The position numbers and the translations under genes were made by a program. 42,824 nt of DNA, from positions 44,959-87,782 of the forward strand of contig NW_014040451.1 in NCBI RefSeq assembly GCF_001186125.1, given 5' to 3'. Below the pieces are notes generated by a model that did no database searches, was not told the DNA's origin, and was given only the letters and a program-made list of their open reading frames with translations. Positions 5,930 through 32,300 of this stretch are shown in pieces. This stretch comes from Sphaeroforma arctica JP610 (Eukaryota). The first letter of the stretch is position 1. Each line of letters begins with the position of its first letter.

Positions 5930-6196
5930 GAAACCACATATGAGAAAATAAATTCTCACATGACGGAATAACACTAGTGACAATAAGTTCTCACGTGACG
6001 GAATAAGCCCAAGTGACGTCACCCATGCCGGAATAAACCCAAGTGACGTCACCCATGACGGAATAAGCTTGACAAACAAACACCGTTTTTATCCCTCATA
6101 AATACAGGGAATAAAGCAACAAGCTACCGGGCAATACAGCACGGTAAACACTTCCAGCGGAAGTGCAGCAAAGCAACAACACTATAACAGTAAGTA

Positions 6197-6778: not shown

Positions 6779-6927
6779 GGCTGAAGAGCGCGCTTTCGCA
6801 CAAGACATATCCTTTGTCTTTATTAATAATCCACTAACACCCACACATCAACGCAGACATCTGAAAATGCCAACAGCAACCAGAACAAGCAGGTAGTGAA
6901 GGCGCGGGTGACGCGGGAGTCAGCCCA

Positions 6928-8400: not shown

Positions 8401-8469
8401 AATGTATTTACAGATGAAGAAACGTTGTTAATAAATGCAAATGATATAAATTATCAACCTTTAACGCTT

Positions 8470-10260: not shown

Positions 10261-10373
10261 GATACTTTAGAATTAAAGAGTCAAAAGTATTACAACAGGC
10301 GAATGAGGCAACACATAATAGCCAAGAGTACACCACCTTGGAAACGAACATGCCCATAACCATATCGGCTATA

Positions 10374-10769
10374 GACTGGATCTTACATCCCAGATTCTAT
10401 CAAGAAGCGGAACAAAGGTTTGGAAAGTGCACAGTAGTTAATGTTTGCATCGGCACACAATGCGCACACAGATAAATACTACACCAAAGTACAGAATGCG
10501 CTACAACAAAAGTGGGCGCAGGAAGTTGATGCATGGGCGAATCTACCATGGGAACTCGTACCTGATGTCCTTGACAAAGTCATTGAAGAGGCAACCTGCA
10601 TCACGATATGTGTACTATATTACTCCAATACCTCGTGGTTTCCAAATTTCTTGTCTTTGCTAGAAGAAGACCCGATGCCAGTGGAAAACACAAACAATAC
10701 GTTCCTCAAAGCGGCAAGAAGGCTTACGGCAAGACCCCATTGGGTGTCACATTAGTCGCAATGATAGGA
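10374..10769 (+). pseudogene. Dam-like DNA amino-methyltransferase domain in pol of element 1 (between RNase H and integrase)
   Basis: Reads DWILHPRFYQEAEQRFGKCTV/(fs)MFASAHNAHTDKYYTKVQNALQQKWAQEVDAWANLPWELVPDVLDKV...CVLYYSNTSWFPNF...NTFL/(fs)SGKKAYGKTPLGVTLVAMIG. This fits the phage Dam (PF05869-type) and DIRS MT pattern; the catalytic NPP[YFW] motif reads NLPW here. Confidence 0.82.
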
Positions 10770-10879
10770 GTTAAGTCTCCATACTTTGACGCAACGCGGG
10801 AACAACCTGCTATATACGTTGCAGCGTCAGAACCAGTTCATTCTGGATACGCACCACAGGCAAAAGAATATGAGACACA

Positions 10880-11760
10880 TGTCAACATCGTTGAGCAATA
10901 CCACAACTTGGGACATTACACTCCTGAGGAAACAGTACACAAGTTGCAAACAGATGGACATGATTGGGCTGATATCCAACAACATGTACACAAATTCATT
11001 GACGGATGTATACCATGTCTCAAAAATAAAATACACAAAAATGGATTTCACCCCTTACAATCAATTACAGCCGCATATCCAAGCGACAGAGTCCAATTGG
11101 ACACCATAGGGCCACTATTGGATTCCAATAGAAGACACACATACGTGTTAATATACCTCGACGTATATTCATCGTACGTCATTTTGAGTCCAATGATGGA
11201 CAAATCAGCGGCTACCATAGCCCACACACTGGTACCAATTATGTGTGAACATCCGTATCAACCTAAAGTCTTAGGCGCGAACGAGCGATCACATAGAGAC
11301 CTCATGCCACTGCTACGGAAATTCGTGGAACAGAATCCAGGTAACTGGTCACGACTTCCATTCGTATATATGGGCCTCAATCTGCGTACATCCAGAAAAG
11401 ACAAGTCACCGCGCTTTAATGTGTACGTTGGTCGCAGACAGAATCAACTCACGGACTACAATGTGCCAGTGACCGCACCCAGTACAACAGAGCGACTGCA
11501 AAATCTAAAAGACGCCATTAAGCCACAGCTAGAGAGCAATGTTGCACAATATCAAAAGAAGATGCGAGCAGTATACGATCAAAAATACCAACAGAAATAT
11601 GTAAACTTCCAGGATGGGGACCTTGTCTTGGTCCGCTATCAAGGTGAAATGAACAAGTTAACAGCACCAAATGGCGGACCATACTAAATAGTATCCAGAG
11701 AGGGCAACGGGTATTTTGTCTGTACCCTTGTTGGGACTAAAGCCCCCGAATATACTGACT
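10880..11760 (+). pseudogene. DDE integrase of element 1 (internal deletion around the second Asp)
   Basis: HHCC zinc finger HNLGH...CIPC, RVQLDTIGPL, YLDVYSSY, PY.P...GANER and GPY in ORF 10608-11687; the SDNG segment is missing. Confidence 0.9.
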
Positions 11761-11861
11761 CGATCAGTGATGAGCTACTTGGCCTCGTAAAAAAGGCCAA
11801 TGCTCCGGAAGCATTTACTTCCAACAATCACGTACAACCAAACAAAGAGACTCAGTTCTCC

Positions 11862-12101
11862 TTGATAGTCGACGACAGGCCGTCCATCCGAGGTGATGGA
11901 TCCCAGGAGTACCTACTGCAATGGACAGATGAGAAGCGTACCTGGACGCATGAATCAGACATCGCATATGCTGTTGTCATTACAACATATCGTCAACGCC
12001 GGAGACGTAAAAGAAGGCAGTCAAGGCCAAAGAAGCCAGCGACAACAAGCACTGATGAAAGATCAGCGAGCCACAGACACCGCACGAGGCGGGGGACCTA
12101 A
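11862..12101 (+). pseudogene. C-terminal chromodomain-like module of element 1 integrase
   Basis: IVDDR....G..EYLLQWTDEKRTWTHESDI matches the chromodomain I..R...EYLVKW....TWE pattern and is followed by a basic tail. Confidence 0.75.
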
Positions 12102-12469
12102 GCAAGTCTTACTGATACCACAGGACACTCCCACTTTTCGCGCCTAGAAGCATGTTCCCCCCCCACACCAGAGAGACAAGGACCAGAGACTCGGTTGTAG
12201 AGCCACCGTTGAGATGCATTTTCCTAAGCCAAGTTGAGATCAACCGAGAGCACCGGTCAAGACTGACCCCGATGAGCGTGGTAGAGGACTCCTGCTATAG
12301 TAGAAATTTAACGGTAATATGTAATAGATAACGGTGGCAGGTTTTTCATCTTATGCCCCCTAAAGGACAAGATTTTTCCTGTATACAAACACCAACCTCT
12401 AGATAATCTAGTACTGTAAGATGTCACTTTATACTCCTACGCAGGCTAAAAAGCATAAAGTTGGGGGGC

Positions 12470-12781
12470 TGTAGCATCTAGAGACCAGATTATCAAATCC
12501 CAAACATAGAATCATCAAATACTGAGTTTTGGAATTAGGATTGGAATATTTCTGACATTAGAGTCATCAGAAGTATTAGCGGTAGAATTGGTAAGATATA
12601 CCGGGACTCTCGCGTGAGAGAGAAACACTCAAGTAAATCACGAGTCTAGTGAAAACACAAATAAAGACTCATTTCGGTTCTCTCAGACTAAGGACTTTTC
12701 GTAGCTGAGGTAACCGTACTTGAGAAGAGGTCTATTGTATCCAATTGTCTCGTACCTTTCAGTTACTCTCCATACTCTACA
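12470..12781 (+). repeat. 3' LTR of Gypsy element 1 (312 bp)
   Basis: Direct repeat of 4113-4437, preceded by a PPT-like G-rich tract and followed by the ATCG duplication. Confidence 0.95.
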
Positions 12782-13789
12782 ATCGGACTGAGTGTTCGAC
12801 TGAGTCGAGATCCTGGTTCATGACGTCCGGAGAGAGTGGGGAGAGATCGGTATAAGGCAATGTCAAGCAATCGGGTGATGGTTGAAGATAAGAGGCCTGA
12901 TGGGGCGAATCATCGTGAGTAGGGATGTAGGCAGGAGCAGGCGTCTAGTGGTTAGAACTGGCGGAAGGGCTCACAATGGGTGGAGGGGCAGTCGGCGTGG
13001 GTGGGAGACTGTCGTATACATCTGGAGGATGATTAGCAGGCAGCAGAGGGTGTGACCATGGGTCACGATTGAGCGGCGGTGGGGCATACGGACTTGGAGG
13101 TCGGCGCGGGTGTGGGGCAGGAGGATGAGACCATTGACCGGGAGGGACAGGTGGGGGGTAATACGGTTGTAGAATAAGGCGTGGGATGTGGTGGTTAAAA
13201 CGTGTCCACTGATTAGAGAGAGGAGGCCCTGGTGTATAGTGCTGAGGATGTGGCAAAGGATACTGAGCCATATTGGGAGGGGATATAGGCATGGGTCGCG
13301 TGTAGGGAAGTGGGGGGGGTCATAGGAAATTGTTGGAAGTATTGAGGGCCAGGGATCCATCCGGGACTGCGAGGAGGTGTCGAGGAGTAGGAAGGCGTAG
13401 GAGTGTATATGACCTCATCCGACTGAGGTGGACGTGGGCGGTCATCGGGGACATGCGAAGATGGTCTAGGCATGTCTGTCGGGAGAGGGTTAGGGGCAAG
13501 AGCAGGTCGAGGGGTTGGATTGGATGTACTGGCGTCGAACGGGGCAGGCAGTTGAGCATCAGCAGGCTCAGGATGTATATCAGCTTGAGGACTACGACCG
13601 GGGGTGGGTGGTAAAGTGGCATCCTGAGGCTCCAGTTGTATGGCATTTTGGTGCAGCGAGTTGAACAGGCCAAGTAGGGGGGGGGGGGGGGGCGAACAAA
13701 TGGGATACTAGTCATGTCAGGATCAGATGTGAGGGACATTCAGTCAACCGGGATGTCATAGCTAGAGGGAGTATCGGATGAAGATGCCA

Positions 13790-14520
13790 CGTTACAATCG
13801 GCGGACCATCCAGCATTACATTCGGTAAGGAACTTAACGGTCCTTGGTGTAAGTTTGGGCTTGGATGTCAAGGGTTTGGATCCTATAATAATCGAGGGTA
13901 GAGTTGGGAGCCCGATCAAGAAGGCCGCCATATCCAGCTTTGGGTAGGTATTTGTGGCGGCCTTTTGCCTTGTCGCCCTGGAGTTTGTAAAGAACGATGC
14001 AACCAAAACGTGCGCAAAGATCCCGAAAATCATACCGTTGGAGGAAGGTCTCGGCGGGTGTGCGAAATTTATTGCCTTTAACAAAACAATTGTTGCGGAG
14101 GTTGCATGCCCAGAGGAAAGTATCACTCCATCCAGGTTTAGGCATGCCAGCATCGATCAAGAGTTTGCGGACATATATATTGAGCATATCATGAGGACGC
14201 TCTACCTTGGCATTGCGTTGGGGGTGTGGGGAGGGTAAGGAGGGAGCTGCAGAAGTTGCATCTTATGGTCGAGGACGAGGTCCGTCATAGCAGTGCTGTG
14301 GAATTCCTTAGCGCCGTCAGCCACAAGTATATCCGGTTTTCAATTACGAGCAATCGAGATGTGAAGGCGTTTGACATGTTGGGCAATATTTTGGTGGTCT
14401 GGGAGTAGAGAATGAAGACTATATCGGGTCCAGCATCGAATATACTGAGTGTGTATTCGCTTCCATATCTGTCGGGCTCGATGGAGCTCTGTGTATTCAC
14501 GTGCCATCGCTCACTAAGGC
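13790..14520 (-). pseudogene. Copia-type DDE integrase
   Basis: RWHVNT...Y.LSIFD, ILVADGAKEF, TPQRNAKVER, DAGMPKPGWSDTFLWACNLRN, TPAE, ARFGCIV; frameshifted. Confidence 0.88.
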
Positions 14521-14691
14521 CGTAGACCGTGATAGTAGGCGTGGGAAACCGTGATAGTAGGCGTGGGAAACCGGGCCAGCTTGTATGTTGCCTTCGAGAC
14601 ACGTGTGGCAGTGCTTCGAGAACTCTGGGTGAAGTTTCACGAAGTCAATGGCAGCCTGGAAGTCTGGACCAGGAGTAGAGTGTGTATCGAT

Positions 14692-15099
14692 GCTGCCGAG
14701 GAGGACAACAATGATAAATACCCAAGTGAGTTTACCAACTGTGGTAGTGCCGTGTCGTTGGAAGGTAGTAGTAGTATTTTAGACGATGACTGGCTGGCCT
14801 TGAATGTGAGCCATAAGGGCATTCCACCAGGTGGCTTGAAAGCGAACGGGAACAGCCATCACAATCCGGGATCCGCAGCGTGCGTTTTTATTGATAATAT
14901 CCTCGATCAAAGACCATGGGGAACAGGCATATGCTAGCTCCTTGGTGAGATACACCTCAGTCCATCATTTGAATACGCCACCACCTTCAGGGCTAGCAAA
15001 ATAGGGAAACTGAGCATTGCTTGGCACGATGTCTATCGTAAGATGAACGCATAAGAATTCACAGGCCGTTTTAACTAGTGCAGGGTCAAACATCCAGGA
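14692..15099 (-). pseudogene. Dam-like methyltransferase domain in the Copia pol (between protease and integrase)
   Basis: One frame through two stops reads SWMFDPALVKTACEFLCVHLTIDIVPSNAQFPYFASPEGGGVFK*WTEVYLTKELAYACSPWSLIEDIINKNARCGSRIVMAVPVRFQATWWNALMAHIQGQPVIV*NTTTTFQRHGTTTVGKLTWVFIIVVLLG. It is collinear with the Gypsy MTase domains over its whole length. Confidence 0.75.
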
Positions 15100-15289
15100 T
15101 TTCGTGTTGATATACTGTGGAGGTGGGTGGGTAAGTTTTATGATATTCTTTTTCGCCATGCAAAGAGTAGTAGATCGTTGTCGATGACCGGTGGCACGGT
15201 GGTATGCATAGTAAGTCATGGTAGTTTTGATTGCATGACCTTCAAATAGACTGAGTATGGTGTCCACGGGCGGTGTGAGTAGAAGCCGA

Positions 15290-15610
15290 AGTGCGTTGTA
15301 GGGAACATAGTAGCCGCCCTTTTGCGTGGGATGGTGAGTTTGTCCTTATCAAGTTGGAGTAGGCATTTACGTTTGTGTTTCGAGAATATGAGTTCAAACC
15401 CCGAGTCTTGTAGGCTGTTTTGAGCGATAATAGCTTAGGTTAAGTCTGGATTAAGGTATGTTAGGCCGAGACCGGGGAGTTGACCACGCTCCGTGACATA
15501 TTTAACATTTCCGTCAGCAAGTTTAAGAGGGAAATTGCCAGATGTTATGTCTACATTTCTTGCTTTAGAGTTCATGAAATTAACTGTAGCACCTCCATCT
15601 ATAAATTAAG
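15290..15610 (-). pseudogene. Copia-type aspartic protease
   Basis: Minus strand reads FIDGGATVNFM...LKLADGNVKYVTERG...YLNPDLT*AIIAQNSLQDSGFELIF...C. Confidence 0.8.
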
Positions 15611-15687
15611 AGTATATGTCAATATTATCTGATTGTAAGGATATTCTGCAAACTGTGATTTGTATCACAATATAGGGATAATTTTAT

Positions 15688-16600
15688 TTATTTCAAAAGA
15701 GATAAGCTGCAAGTGGAGTTGACAAGGGGGTTCAGTAGAGCATCCATGCTACGGGCAAGAATTTTGGGCGCTCGTTCACGTGTGCAGTGGGCCGCCCGCT
15801 TGATATGAAGATAGTGGATTAAAGCTGCTTTCGTAGAGTCGGGATAATCTTGGGAGCGTGGGTCGATAGTTTTATCAAGTTGCCTTTTCAACGTAAGTGT
15901 TGCATGTTGAGACCGCAGCGACCACAATTCTTGGGACAATATAAAGAAGTGTGCTTGTCGTTACAGCACAGGTAGTATTTATTGCCATTCGAAGTGCGGT
16001 TGCGTTGAGTCTTAAGTTCCCCAATCATGCGTACAAGGTCAGCAATGGAGGAGTCAGTAGAGGTTGCATTGAGTGCATTTACTGTGGAATTGCTTAAGGG
16101 ATAGAAGAGCGAGCAGTATAATGCCCTTTCTCCAAGTATACATATAGGATGTCGATGTCAAGGTTGTTACGAGTTTCGTGGGTTTGGAGATAAACATTGT
16201 TGATCTGATTGCGGTCTGCCTGGCCAAGCTGGTTGATAAATAGATTTTGTTGTACGGCTGGACTAAGTGTAATACCTTGTTCAAAACCAGTTTCGCAGGC
16301 ATATTCACATCTGGTTGCCCTCGTGGCGAAGAGATTCGGTAGGACCACGAGTGAGAACCGCAAGGTAAGCAGTGTCGACAGTGCAGTGGATGGGTTGTAA
16401 TTGATGCTCAAACTTGGATTGAAGGACATTGTAGAGGCTCCGAGGATGTTCACGTTTGGTGAGACAGGGCCATGCTTACACGGAGTTTAGGATGCATTGA
16501 ACTGAGGACGGATGTTCGGGCCTTGTGGCAAGTGCCGTTAGCGATGACACGTTCGATGTATGTTTGTAGTTCCACCATATATTCCTTGTAGTCGCTACGA
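15688..16600 (-). pseudogene. Copia gag region (degenerate, Cys/His knuckle remnants)
   Basis: Lies upstream of the protease; degenerate Cys/His clusters such as YLCCNDKHTSLYCPKNCGRC near 15910-15975. Confidence 0.55.
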
Positions 16601-16772
16601 TCGTTAGTACGTGTAGCTAAGATATGGGCGTAAGTTTGCGGTGGATTTCAGGGGTCCTTTGGAAATTTTTGATCAAATTTAAGAACAGAGGTAAGTATAA
16701 AAGTCAGGCTAACCAGGCTGACTATCGATGTCAATAAGTTATAGATGAGCTAAAGATTAGGGGATTTAAGAC

Positions 16773-17475
16773 TGTGACTATTGTCTTTATGGCTCCGCTC
16801 TATTCACTCAATACTTCGGTCTAGGTTTATTTGGTGTCAGTAACTAAGATCAGATTTCATTTCATTGGATGTATGATATTTCGTTTTATATCATTTCATG
16901 CCTCGAAACAATCTCTCAATCGCAATTACAATTAAAATAACTCTAAGTCCAACTTAAAAGAAATCAAAAACACCATGATGGTACAGTTAAATGTCTGTAC
17001 CTATACCCCATCACATGGTACCTAGCTCTCCATCCCATTGAAGGCATAGACGGGCACATCTAGTTGGCTGGCCAGGAGGGATCATTTTTATGCCCCATTT
17101 CACAGTGGGCTATCTCGCGCTGAGAGTATTCGGTAATACAACATGTGTCATCAAGTGTCAATATCACCTGAGACTCACCCATTTGTTGTATCCCAATATT
17201 TTGATGGAAAACATATCATAATAGAAAAACCATCATATCAATATCAACAGAGTCTCCGGCCTCTGTCGTATACAATTGTATTTCCAAATATCTCAAAATA
17301 AATTGTTTGTTTGTTTGTTTGTTTTCTGCCAATTCAATACATCTATAATTAGATTATTTGACAACTATACAGATACAAATATCTACAATTGCGTTTCAAC
17401 GTATACCAGTTTTATAACCATAATAGCATTTAACCGTTAATACGGTTATAATTTACGTTAACATGTGCTTCTACT
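16773..17475 (-). repeat. Putative 3' LTR of Gypsy element 2
   Basis: Starts TGTGA at 16773. It shares GGCACATCT.GTTGGCTG and ATCTCGC..AGTATTC blocks with the element 3 LTRs, and 17131-17486 is repeated at 29393-29647. Ends are approximate. Confidence 0.6.
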
Positions 17476-18234
17476 ATAGGGACCCGTTATATGTGATTTG
17501 AAGCACATAGACTCAAAAAGCTCACATGAATTGTACAAGCGAATAGAAGAAACGGGTTTCGATCATATAATGGCCTCAATGCTTATATTATATTCTCTTA
17601 GACAAAGTATACTTAGACTTTATAAGTTACTCGGTTACTCTATTACGTTTGGGTTTAGGTCCTTGAGGTCCCCGATGGTGGATGGGGCGTTTCTTAGTGC
17701 CTTTAGGAGGTACATACATTCCATGGTCTTCGAAAATAGAAATGAATAATGTCTGCGGATAGACCTTGATTACATCAGGTCGTTTGTTTTTAGGTAAGAT
17801 CGCGTCTGCGTCTGCCTTGTTCTTATGTAGACGCTTACGAAACTTCTTATTAAAAGCCTTCAATACATCTGGATTATCGAATGCCGATGGAGGTAGATCG
17901 TATTTTGCGCCATCTGCAAACTCCGTTGTGTAGTAAGTGATACTCTCATGTATGTACTTCCACAGCATTTTTTTAAACTTGTAAAACATAAGAAGTGTAG
18001 TAGCTTCACGTGTGCGACGAAGGATGATTTCTGTCGTTGGAATTTGATGTGAACCGATATTAAGAGTACTTGAACCGACAACATTGTTAACTTCATGAGT
18101 TCCGCTCTTCTTATCGGCCACTCTCAATTAACTGGGTACAGACACAAATGAACGAGACACCGGATTCAGTCACTGGTACAACACCCGCTCACTATTTCAG
18201 GGGCCGTCTCGGATGGTGTTCATTTGGTGGTTTC

Positions 18235-18635
18235 AACTGGACCTATTCGACATATTATTGTATGTCGCCAAAGAGTCTTCTGGACTGCACGGGTACCCTG
18301 ATAGATGAAAGTATCTACCGCTCTATCCACATATATGGGCTCACATTGTATCATCGATATCAAATGTGGTAGCCATTTATCTGAATGTCTTAACGGGTAA
18401 CACAACGTGATGGTAGCATCTTGTATATGAACATATTTCAGCAATTGTGGTATCAGCAACCACGGTGGATTCGCCCATGCGTTCTCATCGGATAAGTCGA
18501 TTTGAAACCCATCACCGTCTGGATGTTCCAGAGTCCGGTATCGCGGTATGATGTGCTGCAAACATGTCGATGGTATGTGGTCCATGTATATTGTCTGCAA
18601 TTTTAAACCACCTAGGATTCGCCATCCAATCCAAT
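18235..18635 (-). pseudogene. Dam-like methyltransferase domain of element 2
   Basis: DWMANPRWFKIADNIHGPHTIDMFAAHH/(fs)YRTLEHPDGDGFQIDLSDENAWANPPWLLIPQLLKYV...TLCYPLRHSDKWLPHL...DTFIYQGTRAVQKTLWRHTIICRIG; intact NPPW at 18460-18471. Confidence 0.88.
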
Positions 18636-21405
18636 CCGTAGCTAACAATCCACGGACCATCTTGTCGAAGTCCTGTACAAAGCACAACAGCATATCCGGT
18701 AAGTGATTGTGTATGCCCGATATATGTGTTATGCTGAAAGAAAACTTTGCGATCGTATCGTGCCATCGACTGACCAATTGTGCATTGGGTTTCATGTCTT
18801 TTAAGTGTTGCAACGATTTCTGATCGCACAGTACATTAAAATGTGTACCGTAAACGTAGTCCTTAAAATGAGTGAGTGCAGTTACAACAGCTAGCAGCTC
18901 CTGTTGCACCGTCGGATAATTGATTTGTGACGAGTTCATAGCCCTGCTAAAGAACTGCACGTATCTTGGTTTAATACAGAACGCCTCCTAGCGCCATGTC
19001 GGATGCGTCTGTAGCCACCATGAAGGGCACTCCATCTTTTGGTGGCTGGACTATTGGAGCTTGTTGAACTACTGTTTTGAGCTGCTTAAAGGCATCATCA
19101 CATTCTTTGGTCTATAACGTTCCTAATTTGCCCTTATAGCATCGTCAATGTCCGAAAGACTTCAGGTAGCTCGCCAGGTGGGAACTTCATCTGACAGGAA
19201 GTTGACGAATTCGCACATGCTGTTAACGTCCTTGCCTGTAGTGGGGGTTCTCCAATCCAGTAAGTATTCTACCTTTCCAGGGTCGATCATAATACCTTCC
19301 CCAGATAATCGATAACCCAACAGTTGTATTTTGTTCACACCGAAATGACATTTCTTGCTGTTGATCTTAAACCTGTGTTCGTTGAGCCTCACCAGTACTT
19401 CCCGCACAACCCTGTCATGCTCCTCTTTAGTTTTAGTAAACACGACAATGTCGTCTATATACACTTGTACATTATCCATGTCTCTAAACAGGTCTTGCAT
19501 GATTTGATGAAAGAGGGCTGGTAACATATGTAAACCAAAAGGGGCTCCTTTAAACGAATACTGCTGTCCATCCCAAGTGAAGGTGAAATACTTCCGGTGT
19601 GGCTTGTATATCTTCATTTGATGGTAGCCTTGCTTCAAATCGATGGTCGAAAATATCTTGCACCTTCCATTTTTCTCAGCATTCCGTTGATTCTTGGTAA
19701 ATGAAAGTTGTGTGAGAGTATAAGAGAGTTTGTAGGACTCATATCCAAACACACGCGAACCTTCTTTAACGTACCGTCGGAGTTGAACTGGTCTACAGCC
19801 AAGAGCGCTAAGTTGACAGGGGTAGGTTCATAGTTGACTGCAATTACCCCGTCTTCTAACCATGCTTTAACTTGTTCTCATACTACTTGTTCGTGACGCC
19901 ACGCTACGTAGTTCCGCGTTGGACATTTCAACTTCGAAAAGTCTACTTTTGTCAAGTCTGAGCTCACGATTCGTTGTTGAATCTAAACTGAGCCCCGTCG
20001 GTGATCTTTAACTTGTTGTTCTCAAAAATAAGATCCTTTAGCTTCTCTGTGAATTGGGGTATTAATTCTTTCACAGTCTTAGAAGGCTTGTATACAGGCT
20101 TCAGCAGATTCTCGTCTGACTGATTCTTCTGGGGGTAGATGTTTGTCGGCAAACCGGTAATCGTTATACCTAGCAACAATAAATATCCCATTCCCATTAT
20201 TAAATCATAGTCTGGCGAAGTGTTACAGACAACTGCCTTCCATTCGGCTCATGTTGGGTCATGCGCCAGCTGCAATCTGTCTCAGCACAGTCCTTGGTCT
20301 CCTTGTACTTCGGTTTAGGAGGATCGGCTGCCTGATTAGACTTATTGCCCAAAGCCCCTCAAGTGTTGACATTGTTCTTTGACCATCAGCACCTTGCACT
20401 TGCTTGTTCTTCTGGACTCCTCTGTCACACCCTTTGTTCCCTTTGTTGTTTTCCACACCCGTATGAGAGTCTCGGCCGTTACCTGGTCCTCCATTCGCGT
20501 TGGGCACCGTCTTCTTAGTAGACGGTGTGAATTTCACCACAGAACTCGGCCGTTTCGAAAACGTCTAGTCTGCTCTCGAGTAAAATTCAGTCCAAGACAA
20601 GTCGGCGAGTTTCATGATGCCGTAAGTTGGCCCTTCAATCGAAATCTCACGTACCTTGTCTGGAAACGATTGACGCATATCTGCGTACAACACCTATTGA
20701 TCTTTTCGGTGAAGAGCTGAGCAGAAAATGGTTTGTACCCACAGGACGCACATACTCAGCTTGTCTGGCGACATTTCTTGCGTCTGAGCACGTTGTATGT
20801 GAGTGTCCAGTTTCAGGAGGTAATGTGACACTGGTGTTCCTTCGTCCGGTGGTACCATTATCGATACCAATAGTTCCGGTCTAGGATCGGTTGAGAACAG
20901 ATGGACTATCATCTCGCTCTGTTCATTCCACGTCTTCAGCTTTGTTATAGCAGCCTTAACCTTCTCCAACTTATTATACTTATAAGATGACGGCTTAAAA
21001 CTCTGTTGCGCAGCCTCAAACCATAGGTTCTTACGTAAATTTGCAGTAAGCATGATTTGACCAAACTCTTTCAAAGATCGTGACAATAACGCTAAGTTAC
21101 TCGTATCGATTTAGTTCTTACGGTCTTTCCGATCTGGACGATACGTAGTGGGTAACTTACCTATGTCCTTGACGAACTTCTTACTGTCCACTGACTTTTC
21201 AGCGTGTATGATGCGTAGCTCCGTATCGATCTTGAATTGAAAGTGCCTCGCCAATGTCATTCTCAAGCTGGCTTACTCTATCTTCCCTTGATCTATTGCT
21301 AGCGTCACCTCTTCTTCTGCATTTAGCATTCGAGCAGTGAAATCAGCAATCTTCTTGTCACTCTCCGAAATCTCGTCAACTGCCGTGTTTGTCTCCTTCA
21401 ATCCA

Positions 21406-22151
21406 TGTAATATTCGGTCTCTCAAGGCGATATTAACACCTTAGAGTAATTAAACGCTTAGGTTAAGTCTAAGTATAAATAATTTCGAAGTAAATAAACG
21501 AAATGAGTCTTTTAGTAAAGTTAGGTATGCCTCGTGAAAACAGCAATACTCTGAGGGATTGTGAGGCTGAGACATTGCCTATATATAGTCCTCTCAGTAC
21601 TGTTTTCGCCGAAAGGATTTTATTCAGTGTTTCGTTGTCGCTCTAATAGAAACTATGGTATATATCGTTGGGGCGAATCCGAGAGACTCATAAAATCCTA
21701 TCTTTAGAAAAAAAAGAAAAGAAAGACTCTTGATGTCCATAGTTATTGCAATACTAAATAACTTGCCACTTATCAAGAATTACCGACTTAGCCTTCATCA
21801 GATTGGCACATCTGGTTGGCTGAACGGGGGATAAACTAAGCAACGCTAATAGTCGTTAGAAACCTATGTTCGGTTGAGCCATCTCGCTACCGAAGTATTC
21901 AGATATAAATAGGTTTGGAAGGATAATATAGTTATATTAATAGAACTAGACCAAATATTATATTTGGTATTTTACTGGGGCCTTTTAATGGCCTTGTCCA
22001 AATATATGATATGTAAAAGGGAAAAGGTATTTAATTAATAAAAACCGTTGAAGACCATTTAAGAGTTTACGTACTTTTAAGAGTACGTTTTACGTACTAT
22101 TAAGAGTACGTTTATATTACAAGATTTTAATGTAGAGGCCCGGCTTTTACA
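21406..22151 (-). repeat. 3' LTR of element 3 (~746 bp)
   Basis: TGTAA...TTACA termini; 21406-21982 is a close direct repeat of 28804-29393; PPT-like tract adjacent. Confidence 0.85.
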
Positions 22152-22289
22152 CAGCCCCCACCCAGCTTTGAGACCCAGGAGAAGCAAGTTGCTCACTCAA
22201 GCTGATTATGAGTCAAAAAGCGAGAAAGGAAAACGGGTTGAAAACATTAAGTAGCATAACGTATAGTTAATGTTTCTCAGGCGGAGAAG

Positions 22290-23700
22290 TTAAGCGTTCT
22301 GGGATACCCTGTGAGTTTTGGGTTTAGTTCCAGTAGGTCCGTGGTGGTCTACTGGACATTCCTTACGCTTCAATGTTTTTGGAATATATGAAGGATGAGC
22401 AGTAAAGCTCGGGATAAATGCTGTTGGCGGGTAAGTTTTAACTTCCGTGCCTTCAGACGATGGAAACATGCTATCTTTTTCAGCCCGTGACTTATGTAGG
22501 CGTTTACGCCATTTTCTGATGAAGGCCTTTAAATGGTCCTGATTGTCAAAAGCATCTGAAGTTAACTCAGTGATTGTACCGTCTATAAAGCGTGTACGAT
22601 AGTATATATATCCTCCTTTATCCGTTCTCCATATAATATCTTTGAATTCGGAGCGGTCAAGAGGTGCAGTATAATCATGTCTTCTTGCGAGAACAATCTC
22701 AGTAGTCGGAATTCGACTAGTGCCTATATTTAAAGCACATACTTTTAGTGTCTCCTACAGAGATTATATATGGTCCTATCCATTTCGATGTTAGTACAGT
22801 AGCATCGTAATTACGTTGACGGATGTTAACTCTGTCTCCAACCTGATACTCTGATATCGTTTTGGTAGCATTCCATTTATTTTGCCTTTTTAATAAGGCC
22901 ACATTAGGTGTCTCTCGCAAGCAAGGATATACATCGTTGTGTATTCGTTGTACCTTCTCTAACCATGGTAACTCATGGCGATCAGGTTCGTCCTTGTTAA
23001 AGGGTATTTGTAACTCACTATATGTGCCACGAAAATAGTGAGCGGGTGTTGTACCTGTAGCCGGATCAGCACACTCGTTCATCTGTGTCTGTACCCACTT
23101 AAGGTGGTACGGCCAATCATCTGCATCATCCGTTAATGCAGTACGTAAGACGAAATTAAGTCTTCTGTGGCGCGTTTCATTAGCGCATTGTGTTTGTGGT
23201 TTATATGGTACACCCCTTTTATGGCTTATGCCTGACACGAGTACTAACGTTTCCATTACGTCATCGCAGAACTCGCTACCGTTATCAGTGCACATTATAC
23301 CCGGCCACCCGTGGTCAGCAAAGACTTGGCAACATAATTCTGCCACGGTCTGCGTATTCATATCCTTTAATGGATAGAGCAAGTTAAACCGTGACGCCAC
23401 ATCAAAGAAGTGGCATACGTAACGGTCGCCTGTGTGCTCGGACGTGGGCAGGTCAACCAGATCAATGATGACCCTGCGCCATGGAACATCTTCAGTCACA
23501 CTCTTAAGCGGTGCGAGCCCATAGCGCTTGATCTGATTGAGATCACAGTCTGTACATGACTGATATACTCTGTCAACTAAAGTTGCCAGCTTAGGGTGCG
23601 CGATCCCTTTTCGCTTAGCATCTATAAGTGCGTCTACTACGTTCTGGTGCTTCAGCTTATGGTTTTGCGTCAGCCAATCAAGAATGTTTTTATCATTCTG
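22290..23700 (-). pseudogene. Integrase plus chromodomain-like tail of element 3
   Basis: HKLKH...CTDC, RVIIDLVDLP, FFDVASRF, TDNGSEF, PYKPQTQCANE and KWIGPY in ORF 22717-24243. Downstream of the stop, the minus strand reads FKDIIWRTDKGGYIYYRTRFIDG. Confidence 0.92.
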
Positions 23701-24124
23701 CTCCTCCAGAATAAAGGTAGGGTGTTGAGAATCCACTTGCGTGGTCTCTAAGTCTGTGGTGTTTCCAGACTCCTGTCCTGCTTTCGCATGAGTGTCATAA
23801 GTGCGCTCATGTGCGTTAGATACACCTGACTTATTTAATAGTCGCATTATAAGTGTATATGCTTCGGGATTATCTTTCATTAATCCCTTTAAAAATAGGG
23901 TTTGAAAGACTTCGGGCTTAGACTTTATGTTAATAAACAGAGTCCTAGCTAGAGACTGACACTTCTTAACTGTAGTGTCATTAGTAGATTGTATTTCTTG
24001 TGTACAGACTTCAAGTGCTGTGTTGCCTTTGAACTGCTTAACGTTCAATATATTGGCGAGTGGAATCTCCGATTCTTTGACCTTGTTAAGGAAGGTCTCA
24101 GAAGGGGTCCATTTAGTTGTTCCA

Positions 24125-24620
24125 ATGGGACCTACACGACATATTATAGTATGTCTCCAGGGCGTCTTCTGGACGGGTCGGGTACCCTGATATAGGAAAG
24201 TATCTACTTCCCTATCTAAATATATTGGCTCGCATTGTATCATGCTTATTAATTTATTGAGCCATGGATCTTTAGAGTTTTCTTTTTCTTAATAAATCCG
24301 CAGTCTCCCTGAATTGGTTTAAATTTTTTCTAGTTTTTAACCTCCCATTCAACCTACTCCGTAATGGGCAACACAACGTGATGGTAGCTTTGTGTATATG
24401 AACATAATTTAGTAATTGGGCAATTAAATGCCACGGTGGATTAGCCCACGCATTATGTTTGGAGAGGTCTAGTTGAAAGGCATCTCCTAAAGGATGATTT
24501 AAAGTCCTGTAATTCTTAAGTTGTGCATTATGATGTGCAGTAAACATGTCAACTGTATGTGGCCCAAATATCCTTTGAGCCAGTTCAAACCACCTGGGGT
24601 TACATTTCTAATCAGCGGCT
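24125..24620 (-). pseudogene. Dam-like methyltransferase domain of element 3 (split by an 80-bp insertion)
   Basis: NPRWFELAQRIFGPHTVDMFTAHHNAQLKNYRTLNHPLGDAFQLDLSKHNAWANPPWHLIAQLLNYV..TLCCPLRS[insertion]KDPWL..MIQCEPIYLDREVDTFLYQGTRPVQKTPWRHTIICRVG; NPPW at 24431-24442. Confidence 0.9.
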
Positions 24621-24659
24621 AGTAACTCACGTACGGATTTATTAAAGTCCGGTATGAAG

Positions 24660-26375
24660 CGTGATAACATATCTGGTACATGGTTATGTATCCCTGGTAG
24701 ATTTTTGATATCGAAATGAAACTTTGATACCGTATTATGCCATCGGCTCAGTATTTGAGAGCCTGGCTTCATCTCCTTCATATATTGAAGGGACTTCTAA
24801 TCACACATCAGCGTAAAAGCTGTTCCGTATAAGTAATCGAGGAAGTGTGTTAGAGCTGCTACTATGGCTAGTAGCTCTTGCTTCACAGTTGGATAATTCA
24901 ATTGTGATGCATTCATTGCTCGGCTAAAGAATTGTATATACCTAGGTTAATTATCTATAATCTGGTATAGTACACGTTCGAGTGCTAAGTCTGATGCGTC
25001 CGTTGCTATTTGACTGGTCCTTGTACAACAGGGGCTTGTTGGACTGCGTGCTTGAGCGCTTTAAATGTGTCATCGCACTCTTCAGTCCACAAGTCCCCTA
25101 GTTTGCCTTTATGACATTTTAAGTGTCCAAAGGGTTTAAGATAATCAGCCAAGTGTGGTACTCCATCTGAAAAAAAGTTTACAAACCCACACATGCTGTT
25201 CACATCTCTTCCTGTAGTTGGTGTTCGCCATTCTAACAGGTGTTCTATCTTACCGGGGTCGATTTTAATACCTTCCCCAGATATACGATAGCCTAAAAAC
25301 TGTATTTCGCTCATGGCGAAGTGACATTTCTTCTCGTTGATCTTGAAGTTTTATTCGTTGAGTCTTTTAAGGACTCGCCTGACTAATATGGCATGTTCGC
25401 CCTTAGTTTTATAAAAGATGACTATGTCATCTATATAGACTTGCACGTTAGGTATGTCTGCAAACNNNNNNNNNNNNNNNNNNNNTAAACCTGTATTGCT
25501 TACCTTTCCAGGTAAAACCAAAGTACTTACGATGGGGTTCATATATGGATGTAAACACAGTAGCACCTTCCATTCGTCTCAGTAACTCGGTTATATGAGG
25601 GAGATGGAAACTATGAGTCGGCAATAACTTATTTATTGGACTCATATCTAGACATACTCTGACTTTCTTAAATGTCCCGTCAGAGTTGTGTTGATCAACT
25701 GCCAATAATGCTAAGTTAACTGGCGTTTGTTGGTAGTTGATTTCGATTATTCCATCGGTTAACCATTTCTCGACTTGTTCTTTAACTACAGCTTCGTGTC
25801 TCCAAGAAACATAGCTTCTTGAAGGACATTTGAGCTTAGTAAAGTCTACCTTGGTTAAATCAAGGCTGATGTATCCGTCGTTGAAGCGGAATTTCGCCCA
25901 GTCGGTTATTTTTATCTTCTTATTTACTAATATAAGATCCATCATCTTATCGGCAAAGCCAGGAATTGATTCCGTGACTGTGTCCGATGGTGGTGTATAT
26001 GGTTTTAGACAATTATCGTCTGACTGATCCTTTAATGGATCTATGTTGTTGGGTAAGCCTGTTACGGTTATCCCTAAAGTGAGCAAATCGCTCATTCCTA
26101 CTATAATGTCGTACTTCTGTGACATCTTAACGATCACAGCTTGAGTTGTGATATTTCTATCATCGGCCAGGGAGATTTTAACATCTGTGGCCATGGTATC
26201 ACACTTAGAAGTTTTATCATCTGCTAAAATTAGGTGAGTGGTTTGAGTTCGCCTTTCAATGTCTTTCAGTAATGCAAAGCGGTCGGATATACATGAAATT
26301 TCTAAACCGGGATCAATCAATGCAAGGACTTTATTTTCGTTGCAATATACAGGGATTATTACATGCTCATCTAAG
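24660..26375 (-). pseudogene. Element 3 protease, RT and RNase H
   Basis: ALIDPGLEISCIS (protease-like, catalytic triad reads DPG), LADD, DIIVGM, KVRVCLDMSPIN, VYIDDIVI, TDASDLAL, KQELLAI, HVPDMLSR; small N gap at 25466-25485. Confidence 0.9.
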
Positions 26376-26449
26376 GAGTCGTTGTATTTCCTTTGTAACG
26401 ATTGTACCTGGTAGTACTTTCACTCCAACTTAATGTCGGGCCTTTTGTC

Positions 26450-28622
26450 GCAAGACTTGGCGTGATAGCCATTGGTCTTCTCACACTTGTCACACTTAGT
26501 AAGAAAGTGTGTACAGGTGGGTGCATATCTGCCATTCCAATAACCGTTAGGGGTCAATTGGTACATGTCATATCCACACTGTGCGTCGGCACATTTCTTA
26601 ATCTCCTTAAATGTGGGTTTCTTGTGCTTTGTCTCCGCGCGTGCCCGTTTATTGGGTCGCGTTGATTGAGTGGAGTCGCGAGCACGTGTCTGGTTAGGAC
26701 GCGTCTGATGAGGTTTATCATCTGACTTCTGGCGTGAGAGGTATCCTTGATCAGGGAGCTCGCGCGGTTTCTTATTTCCCGCCTTTCCATTCGAGGTTGC
26801 TCGGTGTACGGGGAAAAGAGTGCATACACAGTATCATAAAACTTTTCCCACGTAAGTCGGGATAGATGAAACTTTGTTTCATGTCCCTTGTCTCGAGCCT
26901 CAGTTGCGTATTTACGTCGCAACTTGGTGTACAGACTTTCACGGTCGTTGTTCCCTGTGTTCTTACAGAAAACATGCATAACCAGGAACTCGTACCATCG
27001 CTGTGCTTTGTTCTTTGTTATATCTGGACGCTTAAGGTCAGCATCAAGTTTCAGAATGTAACTCTGAATAGAAGTATTCTCAACTGGTTCAGTTAAGATT
27101 GAACTCAGTCCTGGACTGCGCATGTCTTTGCTTAATAAGGACGTAACCAACCAACACACAGCTGGCTAGTCACGACAAGTGTCTAGCTCATGCTGGTGTC
27201 GCTGCAGGATCAAGTAACTTGTTCCTGTAGGGTCAAACGATTGCATTAAAGCAGAAATCCATTGCAGGGGAGTGATACCATTCGTCTCCAGCATGACCAT
27301 AAACGCATTAAGCGTACAGGTTAGCGTGTCGAGGTCATGGTTGTTTATAAACTCAACCTGCTTGCTGTTGGCATCCCAGTTCGACTTAAGTCGACTGATC
27401 TGTCCCTTGTACTTCTGGTTATCCCGGTGGTCTTGCCCACGCTGGGCCTGAAGTAGCTGATCGATGCGCTTCTGCTTGATCGCGATCATATTAGCAAAAT
27501 ATGACACGTCTTCAGCATGGTGCTCGTCATGGGCGATTTCCATCTTAATGGTGTAATCGTCGACCGATTTATTAGTTTCGGTCACCTCGTCAGAGTGGAA
27601 ATCCTCTGCGGGTTGGTGTAATGCGGTGCGATCGAAGCGATTAAATTCGACATCGTTAACACGTTTATGGGAGTGTTTATTACCCCTTATAAAGTCCCTG
27701 GTCGAGGCCTTTCGGTGCTCTGTTCCTTGGATAGTTGTTGGTATTATAATTTTGGGTGATTCATGCGTCTGGATGACATACCCAGTCTTAACTGGTTTCC
27801 GACGATTGTGATCCCAGTTGGGTAAGGTGGCGGAGTATTTTTTCCTGCCTCTGGGTCTATAATACCATCAAGGACGGGCGACTCATGCCCGGGCGTTAGA
27901 ACAGGCAAATAATTAGCCTGGAGTTCTGGTGGTAGTACATCGTAAGGTATAGATACGTTGAACACATCTGGTTCAACTGCCACAGGTGTAGCGCTCAGGT
28001 CCTTACACTTTTCGGGCGTAATTGCGAGTCGACGTTCTGTCCACTTCTTTAGGGCTTCAGTAGTGCCCGGAGAAACATGCTCGCGTAAGTGCTGTGCGTG
28101 TTTTCCTGATCCATACGTTCGATCTACTTGTTCAACAGTCATGCCGTTCATAAGGGCGACTAACTGATTCTTAAGATCAGTGTTTTCAGTAGTTAACTTA
28201 CTTATGCGTGTTGGCTCAGTGGTCTCGGTCGTAGATTCGGGTTTGCCACTTGAGCTTGCCTCCTCTTCTGGTTCCGTTATAGGTACAATTTCAGATTCGT
28301 CTTTGTCCCCTATAATTATGGACTTTTCTTTCTGAGTTTCGTCAGAAGAATTGGTTGGGGCGTCTTGAGACGTGTCCCTTGTCTCACTTCTTGGCTTCGT
28401 AAATTCAAGCTTCGAAGTTGAGGCAATAGTTAGCCCTCGGGCTCTATCTGCAGGAGTAGTCTTCTTAATCGGAGTGGCTACGTCCTTATTCGAAGCATTG
28501 TCCTGACTATTATTGTCAAACACAAGTGCTTCGGCTACGGTGCGGTCAAACGCATCGGCAGCAACGGTGGTTGCTTCTGCGTCAGCAGTAGCTGCTGCAG
28601 CGCTAGTGGCTTCTCTCTCCAT
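26450..28622 (-). pseudogene. Gag region of element 3 with long low-complexity N-terminal extension and atypical Cys/His knuckle
   Basis: ORFs 27744-28622, 27166-27585 and 26554-27159; CDKCEKTNGYHAKSC at ~26450-26495, just upstream of the protease. Confidence 0.7.
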
Positions 28623-28803
28623 CTTTTTATGTTCCGCCTTGCGTTCATTGCAGGCGTATTGTCTTTCTTTGTCATAATCTTAACTTATGACTTCAGTATT
28701 ATTCTCTTAAGGAATGACTGTGCTTAGGAAAGATTTCGTGGTAATTATCTACCTTTACGTTTAAGTAGTCTAAGTAGTTAATACCTTTGCTAAATTTAAA
28801 ATG

Positions 28804-29392
28804 TGTGATTTTCGGTCTCTCAAGACGACATTAACGCCTTAGAGTAATTAAACGCTTAGGTTAAGTCTTAGTGTAATTAAATTCGAAGTAAATAAACGAA
28901 ATGAGTCTTTTAGTAAAGTTAAGTATGCCTCGCGAAAACAGCAATACTCTGAGGGATTGTGAGGCTGAGACATTGCCTACATATAATCCTCTCAGTACTG
29001 TTTCCGCCGAAGGGATTTTATTTAGTGTTGCTTTGTCGCTCTATTAAAAACTATGGTATGTTTCGTTGGGGCGAATCCGAGAGACTCATAAAATACTATC
29101 TTTAAAAAGAAAAAGATAAAAAAGAAAAAGAAAAATACTCTTGATGTCCATAATAATTGCATTAACCAATAACATGCCACTTATCAAGAATTACCGACTT
29201 AGCCTTCATCAGATTGGCACATCTGGTTGGCTGAACGGGGGACAAACTAAGCAACGCAAATAGTCCTTAGAAACCTATGTTCGGTTGAGCCATCTCGCTA
29301 CCGAAGTACTCAGATATAAACAGATTTGGAAGGTTAATATAGTTCTATTAATAAAACTAGACCAAATGTTATATTTGGTATTTTACTGGGGC
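28804..29392 (-). repeat. 5' LTR of element 3 (outer part replaced by element 2/4-type sequence)
   Basis: Matches 21406-21982, then switches abruptly at 29393 to sequence matching 17131 onward. Confidence 0.85.
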
Positions 29393-32300
29393 CGGTAATA
29401 CAACATGTGGCATCAAGTGTCAACATCACCCGAGACTCACCCATTTGTTGTATCCTAGTATTTTGATGGAAAACATATCATAATAGAAAACCCATTTGTT
29501 GTATCCTAGTATTTTGTTTGACTATTATACAGATACAATTATCTACAATTGTGCTTCAGCAGATACCAGGTTTTACAACCGTAATAGCCTTTAAACGTTA
29601 ATACGGTTATAATTTACGTTAACATGTGCTTTTACAATAGGAACCCGCTGATTTTAGTTAAGGTAAGCAGTATACTGGGAAGACATGGCGAGCTACGAGT
29701 CGCTCTTCTAGAGGTCTATATTGAAACCATCCTTGTCAAGGACTGTCCAGGACACTGTAGCACCCTTAGTGGTTAGTTGAGTACAATTAGATAGCATAAT
29801 GCCCGTTTTCTCTAAAATGGGCCCATAGCCTAAAGAGATCTATGAATCGATTTACTCAAAGGCTAAGCTTTATTGTTAATGCTAGGTACAATAATATTAT
29901 TTTCAAAAAAGATAAGCTACAATGTATGTATGTTACAATGTATGTACATATGGTATGGCTCTCATAGCCGTTGTAATGGTTCGGGAAAGATCGATGGGAA
30001 GAAGTGGTCAGTAGATTTTAGGTAATCCTTTCCGTTTATCTCGTGTGTTCTTATGTAAGCGCTTGTTCCATTTCTTATTAAAAATACGAAGGAAGTCGCG
30101 AGATTCACGAAACGCATCGGAGGTTAGCCAAGCTACTGTCCCATCCATAAAACGTGTCTTGTAGTAAGTGTAACCGTCTTTTAATGTTTTGTCTATTATA
30201 TCTTTGACTTGTGACTCCATAACTGGGACATCAGAATCAAATGAGCGAGTGAATGAGAGTTCGGAGGTAGGATTACGGCGAGTGTTTAGATTAGTTGCGC
30301 TAGTACCATCTATGTTATTCACTTCGTAAGTATCACTCTTCTCATCATGGTAGGAAATAACAAACGATTCAATTGTCTTAGAAGAGAGTTTTGTAACGTT
30401 GGCTTTGCGATTTATAATTTTAACATAATCGCCTACTTTGAACTGAACAATGTTCTTAGTGTTATTCCATCAATCATACGCTTTAAGTAGGACACGATTT
30501 TTGTGCTCGAGTCAACAGGGGTAAACAACGTTTTGCATATGCTAGATCTTTTGTAGCCATGGAGTAACATGTTTCTCGGGCGCAGTTTTGTCAAACGTTG
30601 CTTGTAATTCACTATAGCGGCCAAGGAAATAGTGAAACGGGAGTGTTCCAGTTTGAGGATTTATGCAGTTATTCATTTGAGTCTGAACCCATTTCTAATG
30701 ATAAGGCCACATATCCTCAACGTCATTCAATGCGGTACGCAATAGCTTCTTTAGTTCTCTATGATGTGTCTCATTTGCACCCTGCGTTTGAGGTTTATAA
30801 GGAACACCACGCCTATGGGTCATACCTGATACGAGTATAAGTGCCTCCATTACGTCGGTACAAAACTCACTACCGTTATCAGAACATAGTACTCGGGGGA
30901 AACCGAAGTCATTAAAGACGTGATAGCATAACTCTGCCACTGTTTGCGGGCGTTTGTTCGGTATTACTTTATATACATCGCCAGTGTACTTGGATCGCGG
31001 GAGTTTAACCAAATCGACTATGACTCGGCGCATCGGTTGGTCTTCTGTCACACCTTTTAGGTGGCATTACCTCGACTGCACCCTTGTTGGGTGCATGTGT
31101 TGTACGAGTCTTGAGCTTTTGTTCAAACTTCTTAGACTCCTCTAGTTTCTAAGAACTCGGTTGAGGGTTTCCACTTAGTGGTACCTGCAAGACCGATGCG
31201 AAAAACAATGGTGTGTTTCCAAGGCGTCTTCTTAATAGAATAGGATCCCGGATACAAGAACGTGTCGGTTTCACGATCGACATAGATAGGCTCGTCTTGT
31301 ATCATATTAATTAAATCACGTATCCATGGGTCGGAGCTACGTAAGGGACAATACAGCGTCATGGTAGATTTAGTAATATTAACATAATTTAACAACTGTG
31401 CAATAAGTTGCCAAGGTGAGTTAGCCCACGCATTATGCTTTGATAAGTCAAGTTGAAAGGCATCACCTTTAGGATGAGTCAACGACCTATAATCAGAAAC
31501 CTGTTTGTTATGTTCTGCGGCGAACATATCAATAGTAAATGAACCCAATCTTGATTGAGCGAGGTTAAACCATTTCTTATTAAGCATTCAATCGGTTGCT
31601 AATAACTCTTTAACTGTTTTCTGGTAGTCAGGGACAAGTCGAGAGAGCATGTCAGGAAGATGATTATATATTCCTGGTATGTGTGTAATGTTAAAAGCGA
31701 ACTTAGCAATAATGTCATGCCAGCGGCTCACCAACTGTGAATCAGGGTTCGTGTCCTTTAAATATGTTACAGACTTTTGATCACAGGCGACAGTGAAGTA
31801 ACTTTCTTAAAGGTAGTCTTTAAACTGTCTTAGCGCAGTGTCAATAGCAAGGAGCTCTTGTTTGACGGTAGGGTAATTCCGTTGACTCTTATTATAACTC
31901 GGCTAAAGAATTGTATATAGGTAATGAGAAAGACGAGGTACCAAATCCGAGAAGAAGTTGACAAACCCACACACAGAGTTCACATCTCTTTCAGTAATCG
32001 GTGTTGATAAACCAACAGAAATTAATTTTTGTCAGGATCAATTTCTACCCCTGCTGCAGATACCTTGTAACCAAGTAAGTGTATTGTATCTTTAGCAAAA
32101 GAGCACTCGTCCTCGTTAATCTTAAGTTTGGCATGGTTTAGTCGCTTTAAGACTTCCTTAACGAGTTTAGTATGTTCATGTATTGTCTTTGTAAAGATAA
32201 CTATATCATCTAAATATATCCGACAGGTCCGTAAATAGTTCCATCATAACTTGTTGGAAGAAAGAAGGTAACAAGTGTAAGCCTTCAGGTGCACCTTTAA

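Follow-up and report, generated by a model that had tools for sequence, protein, structure and literature searches.

Decayed Ty3/Gypsy elements of Sphaeroforma arctica with a Dam-type methyltransferase-fold domain in Pol and a likely worn counterpart in a neighbouring Copia-type element

Introduction

Fernandez-Moreno et al. described long terminal repeat (LTR) retrotransposons that carry a Dam-type methyltransferase domain, named DAM-LTRs, and reported at least four transfers of the domain from DIRS to LTR elements (bioRxiv 10.64898/2026.05.21.726589, May 2026). One of the lineages is ichthyosporean, is found in Pirum, Abeoforma and S. arctica, and is said to lack chromodomains. In S. arctica and A. 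whisleri, DAM-LTRs carry N6-methyladenine (6mA) more often and show higher expression, and the authors proposed a model in which the cDNA is marked and the mark is maintained by AMT1. Earlier, Iyer et al. placed the methyltransferase (MT) domains of DIRS elements in the PCIF1 clade (PMC4738411). Here we analyse a stretch of 42,824 nucleotides from S. arctica JP610 (assembly GCF_001186125.1, contig NW_014040451.1, positions 44,959 to 87,782; hereafter the window), which holds four elements of this kind, E1 to E4.

An initial annotation of the window had taken the combination of a Gypsy element and a Dam-type domain to be new. This proved wrong, since DAM-LTRs, their occurrence in S. arctica and the cDNA-marking model are all in the preprint. 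The Gypsy finding is already known, and our data confirm the Dam-bearing Gypsy architecture in one of the preprint's own species. What the analysis adds is dN/dS evidence that has no counterpart in the text of the preprint (the main text contains neither "PCIF1" nor "purifying") and, beyond that work, a predicted cryptic chromodomain and a probable capture of the domain by a Copia element.

Four Gypsy Elements with a Dam-Type Domain

E1 to E4 are almost certainly four decayed Ty3/Gypsy elements in whose Pol a domain of the Dam-type methyltransferase fold stands between RNase H and integrase (Table 1). Six-frame translation reveals the domain at all four places where the initial annotation had put it, after RNase H and before the integrase region, and Pfam finds RT_RNaseH upstream of it and Integrase_H2C2 or rve downstream. 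The Pfam family Dam (PF05869, cut-off 28.1 bits) matches three of the four open reading frame (ORF) pieces, those of E1, E3 and E4, with E1 alone above the cut-off; the E2 piece, which is frameshifted, is missed. With a profile made from database relatives, all four domains score 81–137 bits. Motif IV reads NPPW in E2 and E3, NLPW in E1 and NSPW in E4, so that two copies keep NPPW, the number given in the initial annotation. The motif.DML.R, described as the RNase H end that precedes the domain, does not extend to E2, which reads DMLLC. The projection read the first 20 or so residues of the E1 domain in the wrong frame, which has a slight effect on its alignment row.

As judged from LTRs and target-site duplications (TSDs), E1 is a complete element nested in a Copia-order element. 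It has direct TG...CA LTRs (4113–4437 and 12470–12781, 89% identity), a polypurine tract (PPT) and a TSD, while E3 retains an LTR pair and a PPT and E2 retains LTR pieces. The LTR search found none for E4 in the window. No TGG-type tRNA primer-binding site was seen 3' of the 5' LTR of E1 or E3. From the layout of the LTRs, E3 most likely sits nested inside E2. The order protease, reverse transcriptase (RT), RNase H, integrase, with a DDE integrase, is present in the elements and in their intact relatives, save that the integrase core has been lost from E2. A 70-bp inverted integrase piece (18128–18197 versus 23033–23102) marks that deletion. In E1, the protease–RT–RNase H stretch is 62% identical to the intact relative P0012, and comparison with the latter shows that part of the integrase core is deleted; its gag-like ORF piece has no Pfam match. 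E4 has lost the H2C2/linker portion, and the Dam-type domain of E3 is split by an insert of 82 nt at 24273–24354. A 28-bp tandem array lies at 5645–5952, within the 5' region of E1.

All four elements are pseudogenes, with 4–11 stops per copy plus frame breaks, and the window copies are dead. An alternative genetic code is ruled out, as the stops are a mixture of TAA, TAG and TGA and are accompanied by frameshifts. The Kimura two-parameter distance between LTR pairs is 0.06–0.13. The long pol alignments of E2–E4 show a DNA likeness of only 64–68%, and E1–E4 therefore represent four families. The frequencies of ApT, CpG and GATC reveal nothing specific to the elements.

Table 1. Annotated features of the window (positions count from its first nucleotide).
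Feature	Positions	Strand	Evidence and remarks
Copia RT (RVT_2)	3155–4011	-	PF07727, 43 and 52 bits
E1 5' LTR	4113–4437	+	TG...CA ends; TSD ATCG directly 5' at 4109–4112
E1 gag-like ORF piece	6865–7638	+	Inferred from its place between LTR and protease
E1 protease, RT (9121–9606), RNase H (9886–10269)	8374–10269	+	Stop-broken; Pfam RVT_1, RT_RNaseH
E1 Dam-type methyltransferase domain	10374–10778	+	NLPW at 10540; frameshifted; PF05869 31.9 bits
E1 integrase H2C2 and partial core	10890–11438	+	Pfam Integrase_H2C2, rve
E1 divergent chromodomain (predicted)	11847–11999	+	Own chromo profile, hhalign prob 94.8
E1 G-rich PPT and 3' LTR (12470–12781)	12460–12781	+	LTR/TSD analysis; followed by TSD ATCG
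Copia-order 5' half	13837–16000	-	Zn knuckle 15938, protease motif 15602, MT-like domain, CxxC 14610
Copia-order 5' half, continued	13837–16000	-	Integrase D/D/E-like motifs 14455/14324/14214, SH3 14007
Fifth, divergent Dam-like domain	14690–15099	-	Degenerate motifs TIDIVP, ACSPW; tblastn E 1e-12
E2 3' LTR pieces	17131–17486	-	Partner pieces 29393–29647, 87–94% identity
E2 chromo-like C-terminus	17837–17989	-	Profile search, weak
E2 Dam-type domain	18232–18639	-	NPPW at 18471; own profile 113 bits
E2 remnant of RNase H, RT, protease	18667–20233	-	Pfam
E3 3' LTR	21406–22153	-	PPT at 22154–22163
E3 H2C2, integrase core (23020–23496), chromo-like end (22506–22658)	22506–23682	-	rve 35.9 bits
E3 Dam-type domain	24121–24616	-	NPPW at 24442; PF05869 23.1 bits
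E3 gag-like ORFs, protease, RT, RNase H	24644–28679	-	Pfam
E3 5' LTR, truncated	28804–29393	-	90.5% identity to 21406–21982
E4 integrase core and chromodomain (30065–30220)	30065–31048	-	rve; predicted chromodomain fold
E4 Dam-type domain	31183–31596	-	NSPW at 31422; PF05869 22.1 bits; model pLDDT 93.3
E4 remnant of RNase H, RT, protease	31624–33012	-	Pfam
Host ORF	35658–37199	+	100% identical to S. arctica JP610 SARC_02403 across 56% of the ORF

Relatives and Phylogenetic Position

A search of 1.84 billion representative proteins gave 242 matches, of which the best 150 were classified with thresholds set in this analysis. Among these, 14 turned out to be RT-MT-IN (integrase) polyproteins in a single ORF, so that intact copies with one open pol frame, which the initial annotation had proposed to look for, do exist. 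A further 4 are MT-IN proteins, 40 are RT-MT proteins without integrase, 91 contain the MT domain only and 1 contains RT only. The named top matches come from Abeoforma whisleri and S. arctica. P0012 is the intact relative of E1, and P0165 is that of E4, to which it is near-identical; the intact single-ORF relatives carry a protease and a DDE integrase.

The RT tree comprises 60 chosen rows out of 116, and its bootstrap is not fully settled. In it, E1–E4 group with 11 Dam-bearing relatives in a single clade (98/98) that lies among Gypsy elements with chromodomains, in agreement with the Gypsy placement in the initial annotation, and 14 DIRS-like rows, labelled by architecture and not by a tyrosine recombinase gene, form a separate clade (100/100). 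It may be asked whether the window instead holds DIRS pol genes with unrelated integrases nested in them, or neutral leftovers. The approximately unbiased (AU) test on the RT core speaks for such a possibility and against a Gypsy origin, in that attachment of the DIRS branch beside the clade is not rejected (p 0.35); the result concerns only where that long branch attaches. Against this stand the direct TG...CA LTRs, the 4-bp TSD and the PPT, the relatives whose single ORF encodes a protease and a DDE integrase, and the identity of the RT, 39–43% to the best Dam-less Gypsy RT versus 28–30% to the best DIRS-like RT. No tyrosine recombinase match was found in the 102 ORF pieces scanned with Pfam, and dN/dS is well below 1. 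The explanation by DIRS genes or neutral leftovers is thus largely refuted and very improbable.

The MT tree shows the same subgroups as the RT tree, which points to a single capture of the MT domain followed by co-inheritance with RT. Other Dam-Gypsy proteins (P0009, P0019, P0039/P0126, P0174/P0175, P0182 and P0247) are placed elsewhere among Dam-less elements, and these scattered placements fit the preprint's account of repeated captures.

Two kinds of unusual architecture were seen among the matches. P0020 and P0038 seem to be odd LTR elements that combine a LINE-like endonuclease domain with Dam, in the order (protease)-endonuclease/exonuclease/phosphatase-Dam-RT-RNase H-H2C2-integrase; they keep NPPW and have a very long RT branch. 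P0223, P0247 and P0265 resemble chromovirus Pols and have a divergent Dam-like domain (NFPF/NVPF) that precedes RT and forms a separate MT branch.

Conservation, Fold and Possible Activity of the Methyltransferase Domain

Substitution ratios indicate that the MT domain is under purifying selection, which answers the question about dN/dS posed in the initial annotation. Among E2, E3 and E4, pN/pS is 0.32–0.34 for MT versus 0.25–0.33 for RT, and dN/dS of the MT domain is 0.15 and 0.19 in the two of three pairs with unsaturated dS. Across seven intact Pols, MT is as conserved as RT (identity 44% versus 45%), and the linker reaches 17%. Motif IV is NPP[WF] in 15 of the 17 clade relatives, the exceptions being P0165 (CPPW) and P0017 (NPSF). 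Public runs contain many related contigs with 85–99% identity, and run X1 reads Pro where the window copies deviate (30 contigs at position 10544 in E1 and 40 at 31419 in E4). NLPW in E1 and NSPW in E4 are therefore private decay.

The MT domain of E4 was modelled with a predicted local distance difference test (pLDDT) score of 93.3, and an amino-methyltransferase fold is predicted. Against BFVD, the model matches predicted phage N6A-MTases with E from 1e-7 to 1e-5 and a TM-score of about 0.7, while viral PCIF1-like proteins are weaker matches, with E of 5e-4 or worse. In the PDB, all six Foldseek matches with E ≤ 0.001 are CAPAM/PCIF1. In the VIA comparison, CAPAM is again the best solved match (Z 10.1, root-mean-square deviation (rmsd) 2.9 Å over 129 residues), followed by ErmE/KsgA/DIMT1 with Z 8.2 and by T4 and E. 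coli Dam with Z 7.6. A sequence search of the PDB with the MT alignment gave no methyltransferase; the matches that it did return trace to RT and chromo columns beside the domain. Profile matches, predicted fold and a motif IV of the NPP[YFW] form all agree with a PF05869-type domain, and the assignment to the Dam/DIRS-MT type of fold made in the initial annotation stands.

For the intact relatives we lean, narrowly, towards a Pol-borne enzyme that puts 6mA on the product of reverse transcription, with AMT1 maintaining the mark. The MT domain would be packaged within Gag-Pol, next to the N-terminus of integrase, and would use S-adenosylmethionine (SAM) to methylate adenine in the element cDNA or in the RNA:DNA intermediate. 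After integration the host AMT1 would maintain 6mA at ApT, a step that comes from the model of the preprint. New insertions would then resemble active host chromatin, and AMT1 would keep the insertion permissive.

Several observations weigh against such an enzyme. The closest solved structures of the MT domain are RNA methyltransferases. Eukaryotic DAMs gave no rise in 6mA in dam-minus E. coli (Fernandez-Moreno et al.), and Iyer et al. judged the DIRS MT domains to be likely inactive (PMC4738411). P0165, although its ORF is intact, has CPPW, and several other Dam-Gypsy matches have FPP or NIPF, so conservation does not everywhere depend on the catalytic Asn. Finally, the published 6mA enrichment of DAM-LTRs is correlative, and the host could have written the mark.

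These observations may be read in two other ways. One is that the MT domain is RNA-directed, like PCIF1/CAPAM, and that its substrate is not double-stranded DNA but RNA, either the element transcript or the RNA half of the RNA:DNA hybrid in the particle. The solved-structure matches, the PCIF1 clade assignment of DIRS MT domains and the negative assay on E. coli genomic DNA all argue for it. The predicted phage N6A DNA MTases are nevertheless the better matches in BFVD, and PCIF1 may therefore be merely the nearest solved relative; besides, it is the DNA of DAM-LTRs that is 6mA-enriched. We consider an RNA substrate unlikely. The other is that the MT domain is a conserved non-catalytic module whose ligand is nucleic acid, SAM or a host protein needed for the pre-integration complex. 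On this view host AMT1 writes the 6mA of DAM-LTRs as a consequence of their transcription. The negative assay and the argument of Iyer et al. fit this as well, as do CPPW in the intact P0165 and the degenerate motifs in other Dam-Gypsy matches and in the Copia-order domain (see below). It is at odds with the retention of NPP[WF] in most clade relatives even though their RTs differ by more than 50%, and with the changes in motif IV of E1 and E4 being private to the window copies. A module of this kind seems to us rather unlikely, and methylation of the reverse-transcription product is the reading that we retain.

The intact P0001, P0012 and P0165 offer constructs for asking what the MT domain of DIRS and LTR elements methylates, if anything.

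A Fifth Dam-Like Domain in a Copia-Order Element

The list of copies in the initial annotation was correct for the four Gypsy domains and missed a fifth, related one (Table 1; tblastn match span 14644–15096 on the minus strand). It scores 61 bits on our own MT profile, while the best of 500 shuffles scores 5.2 and the reversed sequence −2.7; Pfam gives no match to it, and the PDB contains none. Its protein identity to the four Gypsy domains is at most 31%, and blastn detects no DNA similarity to them. These values speak against its being derived from a Gypsy fragment that was nested there recently, and this origin was rejected. In the MT tree the domain has a branch length of 1.9 and falls on the ichthyosporean side, with an unsure position.

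The surroundings of the fifth domain are of Copia order. The insertion of E1 separates an RVT_2-type RT from a 5' half, and the TSD of E1 makes the two halves collinear. The resulting order is Zn knuckle, protease, MT, CxxC, integrase D/D/E-like motifs, SH3, [E1] and RVT_2, i.e., by motif order the integrase is upstream of RT as in Ty1/Copia. The motifs in the 5' half are those that we take to be Copia motifs. One frame, with 2 stops in 274 codons, runs from the GGYY motif after the protease through the fifth domain into CxxC. The integrase has no Pfam rve match and was identified from its motifs and from an Atlas look-alike cluster, in which SH3_retrovirus is present on 56% of the members and which supports the Copia reading of the 5' half. 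No LTRs or other terminal repeats of the Copia-order element were found in the window.

Taken together, a worn form of the Dam-type domain is likely present in the neighbouring Copia-type element, of which one decayed copy is known. No longer homologue of the fifth domain was present among 493 candidates, nor did the Copia RT or integrase ORF have a related metagenome locus, both searches being weak for so decayed a query. The papers listed by our literature searches include no report of a Dam-type domain in Copia elements; the main text of the preprint contains neither "copia" nor "Ty1", and its supplements may list more.

With modest preference, we suggest that a Ty1/Copia family in this host has captured the Dam domain anew, again just before the integrase zinc finger, that the Gypsy donors are cryptic chromoviruses, and that the repeated adjacency of MT and integrase points to action in the pre-integration complex. 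If true, the Copia-borne copy represents one more independent capture, DAM-LTRs occur in the other LTR superfamily as well, and screens at the Pfam threshold of PF05869 undercount Dam-bearing elements.

A Predicted Divergent Chromodomain at the Integrase End

The initial annotation had called the lineage chromodomain-bearing. This appears to be true of E1 and E4 in a divergent form, below the Pfam cut-off, while E2 is weak and E3 scores within the shuffle range. Pfam Chromo finds no match above its cut-off in the four window ends or in four relatives, E1 reaching only 13.3 bits. The end of E1 scores 21.3 bits on a profile of 29 other chromodomains (shuffle maximum 3.6). On a chromo profile of the clade E4 obtains 20.8 bits (shuffle maximum 6.4), E2 5.3 and E3 3.0.

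The C-terminus of E4 was also modelled, with pLDDT 81–90 in the chromodomain part. Its top three structural matches are all chromodomains (Z 7.3–7.7, rmsd 1.8–2.0 Å), SUV39H1 among them with Z 7.7 and rmsd 1.8 Å over 59 residues; matches with Z below 8 can be commonplace, and relatives with clearer chromodomains were part of the alignment used for E4. Foldseek gave no match with E ≤ 0.001 for this C-terminus, and chromodomains appeared at E 0.05–0.1 (MPP8, rmsd 1.1–1.8 Å). A divergent chromodomain fold at the integrase end is thus predicted with good confidence, by profile in E1 and E4 and in E4 by modelled fold too.

Canonical methyl-lysine reading by this chromodomain is doubtful because the aromatic cage is incomplete. 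Its third residue is absent in all four copies and its first in three of the four, the central W is F in E2–E4, and none has the complete YWY cage of chromovirus group I. Group II chromodomains of chromoviruses likewise lie at the integrase end and have an incomplete YWY cage, but are reported for plants only (PMC3605345). The incomplete cages here and in plant group II probably reflect independent decay.

Other Features of the Window

Besides the host ORF with identity to SARC_02403, whose end is overlapped by repeats of about 180–187 bp at 37051–37869, the window contains host-gene pieces of a tRNA pseudouridine synthase (PF01416) at 38624–39371 (minus strand). A DUF6729-containing ORF at 733–1814 (minus strand, 43 bits) is possibly a DNA-transposon remnant. 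No tRNA or Rfam match was obtained anywhere in the window. In run X21, short adapter-ended contigs occur only at 33020–33197 and 21507–21553, which suggests an LTR and an unidentified repeat as sources of small RNAs.

Comparison with Known Systems

Phage Dam (PF05869) and PCIF1/CAPAM (Iyer et al., PMC4738411) share the fold and the NPP[YFW] motif with the domain of E1–E4. With respect to the phage N6A-MTases, the domain differs in being embedded in a polyprotein and has 11–21% identity to its phage matches.

Piednoel et al. described DIRS1-like pol genes of the RT-RH-MT type (RH, RNase H), with a homologous MT domain that likewise stands right after RNase H. DIRS elements have a tyrosine recombinase, inverted repeats and no TSD (PMC3266345), whereas the elements described here encode a protease and a DDE integrase and are set apart by direct LTRs and a TSD.

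de Mendoza et al. (2018) reported further elements, KnitGypsy-Dnmt3 and SymbioDIRS/LINE-DNMT, in which a methyltransferase has also been captured into Pol and is under purifying selection. Their enzymes are C5-cytosine methyltransferases, which are structurally unrelated according to that paper (PMC5890265).

The closest system is the ichthyosporean DAM-LTRs, which share with E1–E4 the host species, the Gypsy RT, Dam in Pol, the NPP triad, a clade with Abeoforma whisleri proteins, the lack of a chromodomain detectable by Pfam and the function proposed for the domain. They differ on one point: the preprint describes them as devoid of chromodomains, whereas E1 and E4 have a predicted chromodomain fold below the threshold. 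If true, this hidden chromodomain corrects the published description of the lineage and links adenine marking with chromatin targeting.

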